A DNA stretch of 28,291 nt from an uncultured Candidatus Peribacteria bacterium (GTDB lineage Bacteria; Patescibacteriota; Gracilibacteria; UBA1369; CAYGJQ01), in contig CAYGJQ010000015.1 of assembly GCA_964350285.1 (NCBI GenBank), forward strand, positions 1 to 28,291. The letters are read 5' to 3'. Shown here in pieces: positions 518 through 27,973 of this stretch. The first letter of the stretch is position 1. Each line of letters begins with the position of its first letter. The translations under genes and the position numbers were made by a program. Below the pieces are notes generated by a model. It was not told the DNA's origin. It worked only from the letters and a program-made list of their open reading frames with translations, and made no database searches.

Positions 518-544
518 AAATTTCCCATGAGGAGGTAAAGCACC

Positions 545-1057
545 ATGGGATGGTTAAGTAATTTTTTCGGTTGGGGAAAGAAGGAAACAGAGGAGGAACC
601 CAATGTCCAAGAACGGGCAAAAAGGGGACAGCAACCCACTCGTGAGGCGATAGCACAAGCAGCTGAACCGGCGCGGCCAGTATCGAGAGTAGAAGAAACT
701 CTCGATCAAATACCAATGGATCAGCTTTCTGAAGTGAGCTCAGCCGCAGTGGACCTACCTATGCTCGACGATGCAAAGTTCGCTGCCATCGACGGGATTT
801 TCGAGGCTGAGGAGATTCCCCCGGAAGACCTAGAGGCCAGAAGGGCTGCGGCTGAAGAGCATCACCGGCAACGAGTAGGCAAAGACCAGATGGTCGCCGC
901 CCTCAAAGCCAAACAAGGCGGCGCCCTCAGCACAGTGCAAAAAGCCAGGCTCAAGCTTGGCATGCCACTTACCCCCCCCAAGTTCCAATACGACCCGGAT
1001 CAAGAGATCCCCGTATTCATTCGTTCCGACAGCAAATCCTCCAAAAAGGCAAAATAA
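545..1057 (+). CDS. Orphan 170-aa protein with an N-terminal amphipathic helix and a C-terminal FtsZ-tail-like peptide
   Basis: Open ORF with SD AGGAGGT 8 nt before ATG and its own promoter. N-terminus is MGWLSNFFGW; C-terminus is DQEIPVFIRSDSKSSKKAK. Confidence 0.8.
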   Translation: MGWLSNFFGWGKKETEEEPNVQERAKRGQQPTREAIAQAAEPARPVSRVEETLDQIPMDQLSEVSSAAVDLPMLDDAKFAAIDGIFEAEEIPPEDLEARRAAAEEHHRQRVGKDQMVAALKAKQGGALSTVQKARLKLGMPLTPPKFQYDPDQEIPVFIRSDSKSSKKAK

Positions 1058-1060
1058 AAA

Positions 1061-1075
1061 CTCACCCGCCTTCAA
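1061..1075. repeat. 3' arm of the inverted repeat flanking 545-1057 (partner 507-517 and 528-531)
   Basis: CCCGCCTTCAA (1065-1075) is the exact reverse complement of TTGAAGGCGGG (507-517). CTCA (1061-1064) complements TGAG (528-531). Confidence 0.7.
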
Positions 1076-1085
1076 TCCCCCCCCA

Positions 1086-1094
1086 TGTTATAAT
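1086..1094 (+). promoter_or_regulatory. Extended -10 promoter of proC
   Basis: TG-T-TATAAT ending 23 nt upstream of the ATG. Confidence 0.65.
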
Positions 1095-1117
1095 CAGGCC
1101 ACTTTTAAATCCGCAAT

Positions 1118-1900
1118 ATGAATCTCACCATCATCGGCGGCGGCAACATGGGATCCGCCATCGCTCGCAGCCTCATCAAAAATTCCGACATCAATCTCAC
1201 TATCTCGGACCCGACAGTAGATAAACTAGCTGAATTCCAAACCCAAGGCGCCACCGTCACCAGCAACAACCAAGCAGCCACCTCCAGCGCCGACGCCATC
1301 ATCATCGCCATCAAGCCACAATACATCGACAGCCTTTTCGCCGAACTAAAAGACCAAATCCCCACCAACGCCCTGATCATTTCTATCGCCGCTGGCGTCA
1401 CCATCGAACGTTTCCAAACCGGTTTCAACCATCAACAAATCGTCCGCGTAATGCCCAACACTCCAGCTCAAATCAACCAAGGCGTATCTGGTTGGTTCGC
1501 CTCAGCCGAAGTTACTGAAGCCCAAAAAGCCCAGGTGAAAACCATCCTCCAATCTTTCGGCCAAGAAGTCGAAGTCGAAAATGAATCCCTAATCGACGCT
1601 GTAACTGCTGTATCTGGTTCTGGCCCAGCATACTTCTTCTATTTCCTCGAACACATCATCAAAGGCGGAGTCGCCTGCGGTCTCACCGAGTCCCAAGCCA
1701 AAGACCTCGCCATCCAAACCGCCATCGGCGCTGCTCACCTTGCTGAACAATCCGAAGACGATCTCGCTACTCTCCGCCAAAAAGTCACCTCCAAAGGCGG
1801 CACCACTGAAGCTGCCATCAATTCCATGGTGGAAAGCAATGTCGGCGAATCAATCTCCACCGCCATCCAAAAAGCCAACCAACGCGCCAAGGAATTATAA
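1118..1900 (+). CDS. proC: Pyrroline-5-carboxylate reductase
   Basis: IIGGGNMGSAI Rossmann motif, IIIAIKPQ, ISIAAGV, VRVMPNTP, TAVSGSGPAY and VTSKGGTT. Confidence 0.98.
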   Translation: MNLTIIGGGNMGSAIARSLIKNSDINLTISDPTVDKLAEFQTQGATVTSNNQAATSSADAIIIAIKPQYIDSLFAELKDQIPTNALIISIAAGVTIERFQTGFNHQQIVRVMPNTPAQINQGVSGWFASAEVTEAQKAQVKTILQSFGQEVEVENESLIDAVTAVSGSGPAYFFYFLEHIIKGGVACGLTESQAKDLAIQTAIGAAHLAEQSEDDLATLRQKVTSKGGTTEAAINSMVESNVGESISTAIQKANQRAKEL

Positions 1901-1910
1901 AAATTTTCAT

Positions 1911-1952
1911 ACGAAAGAGCCTGGTCTCTGGGGGTTACAAACTCTTCCAGAA
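1911..1952. repeat. 3'-trailer arm of the inverted repeat flanking 1969-3159 (partner 3194-3237)
   Basis: AGCCTGGT-CTCTGGGGgttACAAACT (1918-1943, +) aligns with AGCCTGGTTCTCTGGGG-aaACAAACT (3231-3206, -). Short extensions continue on both sides. Confidence 0.85.
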
Positions 1953-1978
1953 TGTGTCCGAGGACACATCATTTCTTT
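1952..1978 (+). terminator. Possible intrinsic terminator of proC
   Basis: ATGTGTC-CGAG-GACACAT stem followed by CATTTCTTT, which is a weak U tract. Confidence 0.45.
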
Positions 1979-26855: not shown

Positions 26856-26856
26856 G

Positions 26857-27093
26857 TTAATCAAGATAATCAAATAAATCAGCCTTCGGCCTTTCAATCT
26901 GTATCGGACCCTGCTTTTCAAGTCTCTCCAGTTGTCTTTCAAACGGTGTTTTCTCCTTCTCAATACTAATCTTAATTATTTTCCCAGTACCTTTCTGCTG
27001 CACCTGAATTTCAGTGATTTCCCCTTTCATAAGTTTTTCCTTAAGTGATTTATAATCTCTCAGCAATTCCCGATTGTTTACCTTGATAACCAT
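26857..27093 (-). CDS. Cognate antitoxin (Phd/YefM-like N-terminus)
   Basis: 78 aa, ending 1 nt before vapC. Begins MVIKVNNRELLRDY..L...L.KGE and has an acidic end. Confidence 0.75.
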   Translation of the reverse strand: MVIKVNNRELLRDYKSLKEKLMKGEITEIQVQQKGTGKIIKISIEKEKTPFERQLERLEKQGPIQIERPKADLFDYLD

Positions 27094-27120
27094 CGACTCG
27101 ATTTAGCAATTAACAAGCCA

Positions 27121-27150
27121 ATTATCTCATTTGTCAGGCAATTTTGTCAA
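27121..27150 (-). promoter_or_regulatory. TA operon promoter with a candidate operator
   Basis: TTGACA, 18 nt, TG-A-GATAAT. Direct repeat TGACAAA at 27130-27136 and 27143-27149. Confidence 0.55.
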
Positions 27151-27261
27151 GCGTTCATGCCTCTTGCTTAAAACTAAGTTGGCTCAAGTTTTACAGCTTT
27201 TAAACTGGCTTTCAAGCATTTAGTGTCGTCCAAAAGTGGTCGACAAAATATCCCCAGACAC

Positions 27262-27294
27262 AAAGAACCCCCGGACTTGAAGATAAGCCGGGGG
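27262..27294 (-). terminator. Probable terminator of 27367-27897
   Basis: On the - strand CCCCCGG-CTT-atcttc-AAG-t-CCGGGGG is followed by TTCTTT. Confidence 0.65.
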
Positions 27295-27298
27295 AAAC

Positions 27299-27358
27299 TT
27301 TGACCGTAGACGGTGATGTGTATGGAATTGCCCGGAAGTGGGCGAGGAGGGGAATGGA
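27299..27358. repeat. 3'-trailer arm of the segmented inverted repeat flanking 27367-27897 (partner 28040-28085)
   Basis: Collinear blocks TTTGACCG, AGACG, TGAT, TGGAA, AGGAGG and AATGGA occur on + here and on - at 28085-28040. Confidence 0.8.
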
Positions 27359-27366
27359 GGGGGGGG

Positions 27367-27897
27367 CTAGAAGTCGCTCGCTTTCGCTTTGGCCTTCTTA
27401 GCGATCCACTTGGGGGAGCCGGGGGTGGCACAACCTTTGGGGCGGCCATCACCGGGAGCAAAGTGCTCGCCATAGGCTGCCCCTTTCTTACCAGCTTGTC
27501 TCCACATCGTCAGGTCTTTGTTTTTGTAGTTGCGGAGAAATTCCTTTCGGTCTTTCTTGGCAACGCGAACCTTGACGTTGACCCAAGCGGTGCCACGGCT
27601 AAAGGCGACCACGGTGTGAGCCGGGGCTGCTCCCTTGGCTTTGACGGACAAGGTACGGCCGGTAGTGGAGAGCACCTTGATGCGGCGATGCAGGCGGATG
27701 CCTTGGTAGAAGACACCCTTGGCATGTCGCTTCTTCCAGGTCACTCTGAAGGACAGGACGTACTCTCCGGCGAGGAGAGACTGTCGAACGACCGAGCGCA
27801 CTTTTCCGACATTGGTGCCGGGGTTGGTCATGCAGGCTTCCGCTTCACCGGTGGGGAGGGACAGGGCGAAGAACAAGACGATAAGCAGCTTTTTCAT
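27367..27897 (-). CDS. Orphan 176-aa secreted, highly basic protein
   Basis: ATG with GAGGT 7 nt upstream. Signal MKKLLIVLFFALSLPTGEAEA and a Lys/Arg-rich mature part. Confidence 0.8.
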   Translation of the reverse strand: MKKLLIVLFFALSLPTGEAEACMTNPGTNVGKVRSVVRQSLLAGEYVLSFRVTWKKRHAKGVFYQGIRLHRRIKVLSTTGRTLSVKAKGAAPAHTVVAFSRGTAWVNVKVRVAKKDRKEFLRNYKNKDLTMWRQAGKKGAAYGEHFAPGDGRPKGCATPGSPKWIAKKAKAKASDF

Positions 27898-27973
27898 GAT
27901 AAAAACCTCGTAGGTTAGCTGCCAACAGTTACCAGCTCCCAGAACTTCAGAATGAAGACTGAGAGGACTATGT

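Follow-up and report, generated by a model that had tools for sequence, protein, structure and literature searches.

In Bacteroidia, translation initiation is independent of the Shine-Dalgarno (SD) sequence: the anti-SD is sequestered by the ribosomal proteins bS21, bS18 and bS6, adenines lie upstream of the start codons, and rpsU is the lone SD-led gene (PMC7797042, PMC9976891, PMC13000453). SD-scarce lineages are also found in the Candidate Phyla Radiation (CPR, Patescibacteria), where loss of the anti-SD has been described for Peribacter riflensis and for part of the Parcubacteria (PMC9297842; PMC10783764). Here we analysed the translation starts of a window of 28,291 nt, which is the whole of contig CAYGJQ010000015.1 (C15) of a Peregrinibacteria-like metagenome-assembled genome (MAG). 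The window has four open reading frames (ORFs) without any Pfam family, called orphans 1 to 4 here, and each of them is led by an SD. We found that these orphans belong to a genome-wide minority of genes that is set apart from the SD-less majority by the motif itself, its spacing and its enrichment, and also by GC content, codon usage, N-terminal signals and leader length, and that this arrangement has persisted in one diverged homologue.

The genome resembles those of Bacteroidia in its genome-wide lack of SDs while most of its relatives keep the CCUCC anti-SD, in its A/U-rich and G-poor starts, and in the use of the SD for a special minority of genes. It differs from them in that the minority consists of dozens of GC-rich, secreted, long-leader orphans and not of one autoregulated ribosomal gene, and that the positioned motif here is UUAA(A/C/U) at -13. 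Masking of the anti-SD through bS21 probably does not apply either, since bS21 was not found in this genome. With the SD-scarce CPR lineages it shares the phylum-level group, the scarcity of SDs, the frequent loss of bS21 and the erosion of the anti-SD in some families (here in five of 20 relatives). The papers on these lineages, in the parts available, give SD percentages per genome and the tail sequences, whereas an SD limited to a compositionally distinct class is not described there (PMC9297842; PMC10783764). In the literature searched we found no description of an SD split by gene class within one genome.

In the window, an SD at 4-10 nt precedes all four orphans and none of the 22 other genes (Fisher p = 6.7e-5). 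Orphan 1 (545-1057, + strand, 170 aa, GC 0.53) has AGGAGGT at 530-536, with a spacer of 8 nt to its ATG at 545. Orphan 2 (1969-3159, - strand, 396 aa, GC 0.59), which has a signal peptide and a transmembrane segment, has AAGGAG at 3166-3171, with 6 nt to its GTG at 3159. Orphan 3 (3863-4300, - strand, 145 aa, GC 0.60) and orphan 4 (27367-27897, - strand, 176 aa, secreted, GC 0.58, GC3 0.70) both have GAGGT with a spacer of 7 nt, at 4308-4312 before the ATG at 4300 and at 27905-27909 before the ATG at 27897, respectively. The four sites are thus as claimed in the original prediction, with the correction that the spacer of orphan 2 is 6 nt and not 7; the other three spacers were given correctly. 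The upstream regions of the ~22 other genes are G-poor and have no SD at 4-10 nt, and the GC content of these genes is 0.37-0.52, against 0.53-0.60 for the orphans. Three AGG-like sequences had been described as lying only 2 nt from an ATG, which is true for those at 8113 and 11564, while the distance at 11643 is 3 nt.

The same split holds genome-wide. The MAG has 1.87 Mb in 153 contigs with 44% GC, and is estimated to be 90% complete with 3.1% contamination. We called its genes using a simple self-trained ORF caller that is independent of any model of the ribosome-binding site, which gave about 1,350 (1352) complete genes, and counted as an SD any of the 5-mers AGGAG, GGAGG or GAGGT that lies 4-10 nt ahead of the start codon. 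Only 30 of the 1352 called genes (2.2%) have such a 5-mer, and G makes up only 5-12% at positions -15 to -1. The pattern of the window is found across the genome, with an enrichment that is specific to position. An SD 5-mer was found before 13 of the 73 genes with GC of at least 0.50 compared to 17 of the 1279 others (odds ratio 16, p = 6.5e-10), and before five of the 11 genes that are both GC-rich and codon-atypical. Before ORFs with GC of at least 0.48, AGGAG occurs 19 times, GGAGA 16 times and GGAGG 13 times versus 1-4 times for non-SD permuted 5-mers, which is an enrichment of about sevenfold, and low-GC ORFs show no excess of SD motifs over the permutations. The enrichment is not a by-product of G-richness, because the permuted 5-mers are matched in composition and stay at 1-4. 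The spacer has a peak at 6-7 nt in the GC-rich class only. The sites are canonical SDs in that the motif is complementary to CCUCC, lies 4-10 nt before the start and is enriched over composition-matched chance; the consensus of the GC-rich class (AGGAG/GGAGG) fits the canonical CCUCC tail of the 16S rRNA and not the variant tails seen in some relatives.

Strict criteria assign 23-28 ORFs to the SD-led GC-rich class, and inspection by eye raises the number to about 40 at most; many of them lie outside the window, and 79% start with ATG. The GC content of the window orphans is 0.53-0.60 compared to 0.44 for the resident genome, and the codon score of the class is 0.06 compared to 0.18-0.21. The + strand of the window (1-28291) has a very strong GC skew of about -0.3, irrespective of gene orientation, and this skew is missing from the SD-led genes, the four orphans included, in which G3 is about equal to C3; the third positions of resident genes are strongly skewed. 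Hydrophobic N-termini that resemble signal peptides or lipoboxes were found in 75% of 28 SD-led GC-rich ORFs versus 22-29% elsewhere. A Pfam scan of 20 class members left 15 without a family, and the remaining five are of surface type, i.e. MopE metal-binding repeats, SBBP propellers and a trypsin-like protease. For 17 of the 28 ORFs the neighbours on both sides are typical genes, on contigs of ordinary GC.

Two loci with sequences of this kind may be mentioned separately. Positions 88-16172 of contig C4 (L075) form a 16-kb GC-rich block of SD-led genes, whose products are a protein of 1950 aa carrying 12 MopE-type metal-binding repeats, a paralogous pair of SBBP propellers of 705 aa each, and a small lipoprotein. 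Two similar short ORFs (LLDAAM..K..SDQQVRNA) at C19 20944-21204 and C113 870-1253, each preceded by GAGGT with a spacer of 7 nt to its TTG, look like copies of a dispersed repeat and not like genes.

The leaders of the two groups of genes differ in length. Promoter-like sites of the window orphans lie about 100-235 nt upstream, and three of the four score 10-12 of 12. Orphan 2 has a perfect sigma-70 consensus, TTGACA-16-TATAAT, at 3397-3424 on the - strand, which gives a leader of about 230 nt. The other sites are TTGACT-16-TACGAT about 100 nt before the start of orphan 1 (409-436, + strand), TTGACA-16-TATTCT for orphan 3 (4500-4527, - strand, leader about 190 nt) and TTGACA-17-AAGAAT with a TG for orphan 4 (28140-28168, - strand, leader about 235 nt). 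Across the class, promoters that score at least 10 of 12 have a median distance of 147 nt from the start and none is closer than 40 nt, versus a median of 31 nt for the strong promoter matches of ordinary genes, 63% of which are under 40 nt. The start region (-30 to +30) folds with a median of -11.2 kcal/mol in the SD-led class versus -5.1 kcal/mol in ordinary genes, a difference that follows in part from the selection of G-rich motifs.

From the four window genes it had been proposed that such transcripts are effector mRNAs, which leave the cell and are translated by the SD-reading ribosomes of a host. The mismatch between the SD-led genes and the SD-less genome would agree with this proposal, as would the presumed symbiotic lifestyle of the CPR, but none of our results speaks in favour of an export of RNA. 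However, the signal peptides, the lipoboxes and the large surface-repeat proteins (MopE, SBBP, trypsin-like) fit the export of proteins by the producing cell, which encodes lspA in the same window. The sigma-70 promoters are of the resident type, and the anti-SD is retained in most relatives (CCUCC in 15 of 20), so the evidence points the other way. We know of no precedent for the mRNA of one bacterium being translated inside another, and we consider the proposal extremely improbable.

The ordinary genes have a start signal of a different kind. Across the genome, ordinary genes are preceded by a positioned motif UUAA(A/C/U) whose 5' base lies at -13, and the called genes show a T..TAA signal near -15 to -10. 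An example is proC, which has TTAAAT at 1105-1110 on the + strand (-13 to -8) before its ATG at 1118; further sites in the window are at 7615-7620 and 16040-16044. We also examined five relatives from five families of the order, 1.38 Mb in total, and all of them have G-poor starts and a UUAA/UAAC motif. These sequences make UUAA(A/C/U) a candidate for a start signal other than the SD throughout the order. The motif is also found before operon-internal genes, and hence it would act at the level of translation and not as a promoter. We rejected the reading of TTAAAT as a mark of leaderless mRNAs, on account of these operon-internal cases and of the -10-like hexamers of ordinary first-in-unit genes, which peak 22-33 nt before the ATG.

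We give an even chance to the following reading of these data: the genome has two modes of expression, and its SD-led class is read by the resident ribosome and is maintained by selection, not freshly imported. As for its two parts, the resident ribosome is the most likely reader of the SD sites, and we lean towards maintenance over repeated import. The core genes would be expressed from short (~20-25 nt), G-poor and weakly folded leaders with UUAA(A/C/U) near -13 and no SD, as an order-wide trait. Beside them there would be a lineage-specific class of roughly 25-40 stand-alone genes, including the four window orphans, each with a near-consensus sigma-70 promoter, a long, G-containing and foldable leader (about 100-230 nt), a canonical SD 6-7 nt before the start, GC-rich codons and no strand skew; the products would mostly be secreted, lipoprotein or surface proteins without relatives. 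Because the start codons of this class are a long way from the 5' end and surrounded by structure, they would need to be marked by pairing of the SD with the cell's own 16S anti-SD. The genome has probably kept this anti-SD, and no bS21, the protein that masks it in Bacteroidia, was found. As competing SDs are nearly absent from the cell, the SD-led mRNAs should recruit 30S subunits efficiently.

Several findings weigh against this reading, concerning the ribosome on one side and the age of the genes on the other, besides the general caveat that our gene caller, choice of starts and signal-peptide rule are all crude. The only rRNA in the assembly, located through motif and BLAST searches, is the 5' 397 nt of a 16S gene at a contig edge (C41 1-397, - strand; L094). 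An Rfam search of the genome reported no 16S, and two exact-pattern scans of metagenome contigs gave no match. We collected the 16S 3' ends of 20 relatives in the order. While 15 of them carry CACCUCCUU with the canonical CCUCC, the other five, from three families, have a degenerate anti-SD (CCUCU, UCUCU or UUCCC), and the complement just downstream of the 16S gene co-varies with these tails. These five are G014, G017, G018, G030 and G031 (loci L132, L126, L006, L014 and L123, respectively). Peribacter riflensis, too, has been listed as SD-scarce and lacking CCUCC (PMC10783764).

It could hence be that the SDs are relics, i.e. that the resident 16S lost its anti-SD as in the three families and that the genes are translated by another route or poorly. 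The literature on Peribacter agrees with this, the 16S fragment of the genome is nearly as close to the degenerate G030 (88%) as to the canonical G009 and G026 (89%), and prfB (C3 87-1133) is a single open frame without the SD-dependent, programmed +1 frameshift site through which the function of the anti-SD could be probed. Relics would hardly be expected, however, to show a sharp spacing of 6-7 nt and a sevenfold enrichment in about 25 unrelated leaders, to keep the core motif in two diverged alleles (described below), or to have a consensus that fits the canonical CCUCC and not the variant tails, and we consider this explanation unlikely. Since the SD consensus matches the canonical tail and not the variants, we judge from sequence comparison that the resident 16S quite probably has a canonical anti-SD. 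No variant SD motifs matching their own tails were found above chance before the ORFs of the variant-tail relatives G030 and G018, and the core genes of all sampled relatives are without SDs, whether the anti-SD is canonical or not. Raw counts of AGGAGG-N-ATG over 40 relatives were too noisy for use. On the protein side, there is no PF01165 match for bS21 in the 90%-complete genome, and an S1-like protein is present; this fits the published finding that Peregrinibacteria have often lost bS21 (PMC9297842).

The age of the class can be examined through orphan 4, whose homologues include one (L018) on a separate contig of a related MAG, in an SD-poor genome. The two proteins are 61% identical, with a dN/dS of 0.16 and a saturated dS of 2.3, and their GC3 values are 0.70 and 0.78. 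L018, too, sits in an islet that is GC-rich and free of skew, while the genome around it is skewed and has about 45% GC. The AGGU core is found there at the same 7-nt spacing, while the proximal leader is otherwise unalignable. Two housekeeping pairs, namely the genes flanking L018 and their orthologues in our genome, are 55% and 61% identical. Judged by this comparison, orphan 4 seems as old as the two housekeeping pairs, yet both lineages have kept its composition and its SD. A second diverged allele, of orphan 3, was found in the sequencing run X3, where the GAGGTTACT motif recurs and GAGGUUACU is kept with a 4-nt spacer.

Since the data come from a MAG with 3.1% estimated contamination, and each GC-rich orphan is mirrored on the other strand by an ORF that covers about the same stretch, one may ask if we are looking at chimeric contigs, mis-binned foreign DNA or chance motifs before non-genes. 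Against this, single Logan unitigs cross every junction between typical and orphan sequence in window 1-7000 (orphans 1-3) with 0 mismatches; the two best holder runs look like one data set filed twice, and we counted them once. In addition, the same islet architecture is found in the independent contig of L018, the dN/dS of 0.16 is as given above, the permuted motifs served as controls, and 17 of the 28 ORFs stand between typical genes. We regard an artefact as very improbable.

A more serious alternative is recent horizontal import, in which the SDs, the GC-rich codons and the missing skew were carried over from GC-richer, SD-using donors and have not decayed, so that the SD has no special role here. 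Horizontally acquired islets and ORFans are known to undergo amelioration, as in the picture of Lawrence and Ochman, and the SD-led class is like them in that its GC and codon use are deviant, its distribution is patchy, and its products are orphans and surface-exposed. The deviant GC, the atypical codon score and the balanced G3/C3 of the class would all follow from import. An imported gene would also bring a well-spaced SD whether or not this SD functions in its new cell. A search of 200 genomes of the order gave no homologue for orphan 1, orphan 3 or two other members of the class. The five relatives (1.38 Mb) have zero SD-led ORFs that are at least 0.05 GC-richer than their own genome, versus 23 such ORFs in our genome by the same criterion (five for the control motif set), and therefore the class is young relative to the order as a whole. 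The persistence described above is drawn from one homologue pair, and orphan 4 and L018 lie in different neighbourhoods, so the two may have been acquired independently. A strain in run X3, with flanks 98-99% identical, has the orphan bodies uncovered or more diverged and an orphan 2 leader of about 93% identity; this is weak evidence for import because the strain is thinly covered and mutL has holes as well.

No donor has been found, however. Among 1.84 billion representative proteins, orphan 2 has no match other than itself by both word-indexed and exhaustive HMMER searches, and the relatives of the SBBP class member are only domain-level matches of about 35-40% identity, mainly in Bacteroidota, which are themselves SD-poor. 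There is no tRNA, integrase or transposase among the window genes or beside the orphan units. The orphans are GC-richer than the genome, not AT-richer as in the picture of acquired islets, and orphan 4, as diverged as the two housekeeping pairs, has kept its composition and its AGGU through saturating synonymous divergence. The units are also similar to phage morons, which are autonomous promoter-gene-terminator units, in that single genes with their own promoter, ribosome-binding site and end signals lie between backbone genes; they differ from morons in being outside any prophage and scattered over the chromosome. Taking both sides together, we hold recent import to be doubtful, though it deserves to be kept in mind. 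Acquisition from SD-using donors was also among the three readings offered in the original prediction, and it fares unevenly, since the composition is deviant while donor homologues are lacking and orphan 4 looks old. The third of these readings, the SD as a device in an otherwise SD-less lineage, fits best, because no donor homologues are found and orphan 4 looks as old as the two housekeeping pairs.

The four orphans had also been described as panhandle genes, whose leaders and trailers are complementary to each other. Among 23 scorable SD-led GC-rich ORFs, local scoring against permuted pairs gave a complementarity clearly above the permuted 95th percentile only for orphans 2 and 3, with orphan 1 at this percentile, so the link between SD and panhandle is not general. 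The SD thus tracks the GC-rich, long-leader class and not the panhandle. Orphan 4 is outside the scored set. In its leader, some 150 nt from the start codon, there is a distal AGGAGG that can pair with a CCUCCU in the trailer (window 27299-27362 and 28040-28085), and this interrupted pairing is supported by conservation: the arms (UUUGACCGC ... AAUUAGGAGGAA) are almost identical in L018 (1353-1385 and 2046-2073) despite the saturated synonymous sites. A small upstream ORF behind the distal AGGAGG is not conserved in L018. The core common to the adjacent cassettes 2 and 3, TCTCTGGG, is not over-represented genome-wide, and Rfam at a permissive threshold found nothing credible over the cassettes. 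RNAduplex over long flanks was dropped as a panhandle test, as permuted pairs scored equally well.

Most of the other genes in the window have recognizable Pfam families. They include a yfiH-type laccase fragment, proC, mutL, a HAD hydrolase, lspA, an SPFH protein, TauE, msrB, ahcY, metK, a GT2/wcaJ/Wzy cluster, ftsJ, an SLH protein, an EamA transporter, miaB, and a PIN toxin with its antitoxin. The closest relative of MutL, at 46% identity, is from a Candidatus Peregrinibacteria MAG, and the nearest kin among the species genomes compared belong to the same order only. The ORF of the PIN toxin (26481-27093) overlaps the upstream antitoxin ORF (26857-27093), and the toxin probably starts at an internal ATG, since its Pfam domain begins at residue 38; both starts are of the typical non-SD type. 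As for the orphan proteins themselves, the predicted structure of orphan 4 is mediocre (pLDDT 58) with no significant PDB match, and an Atlas search with orphan 1 gave no usable match.

The findings have a practical side for annotation, as callers trained on core genes miss such genes or place their starts wrongly. Our own core-trained caller failed on two of the four orphans, leaving out orphan 3 altogether and picking an antisense ORF for orphan 4. In the public annotation, orphan 3 begins seven codons downstream of the SD-led ATG, giving 138 aa.

SD-poor lineages are usually treated as uniform. Here the use of the SD divides by gene class within one genome, and this split coincides with leader length, base composition and the destination of the protein. 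We speculate, tentatively, that CPR/Patescibacteria in general keep by selection a second, SD-dependent mode for fast-evolving secreted or surface genes, built on a consensus promoter, a leader that is long and structured, an SD and codons rich in GC, beside an SD-less core; this is possible rather than probable, even with a version that involves host ribosomes counted in, which by itself has an almost negligible chance. Lineages without CCUCC would then have to read these sites in a way not known so far. If the class is maintained, ultra-small symbionts can have a mode of initiation that is regulated and specific to a class of genes, and an SD together with GC-richness would be a cheap sequence marker for surface and interaction proteins that are otherwise unrecognisable.

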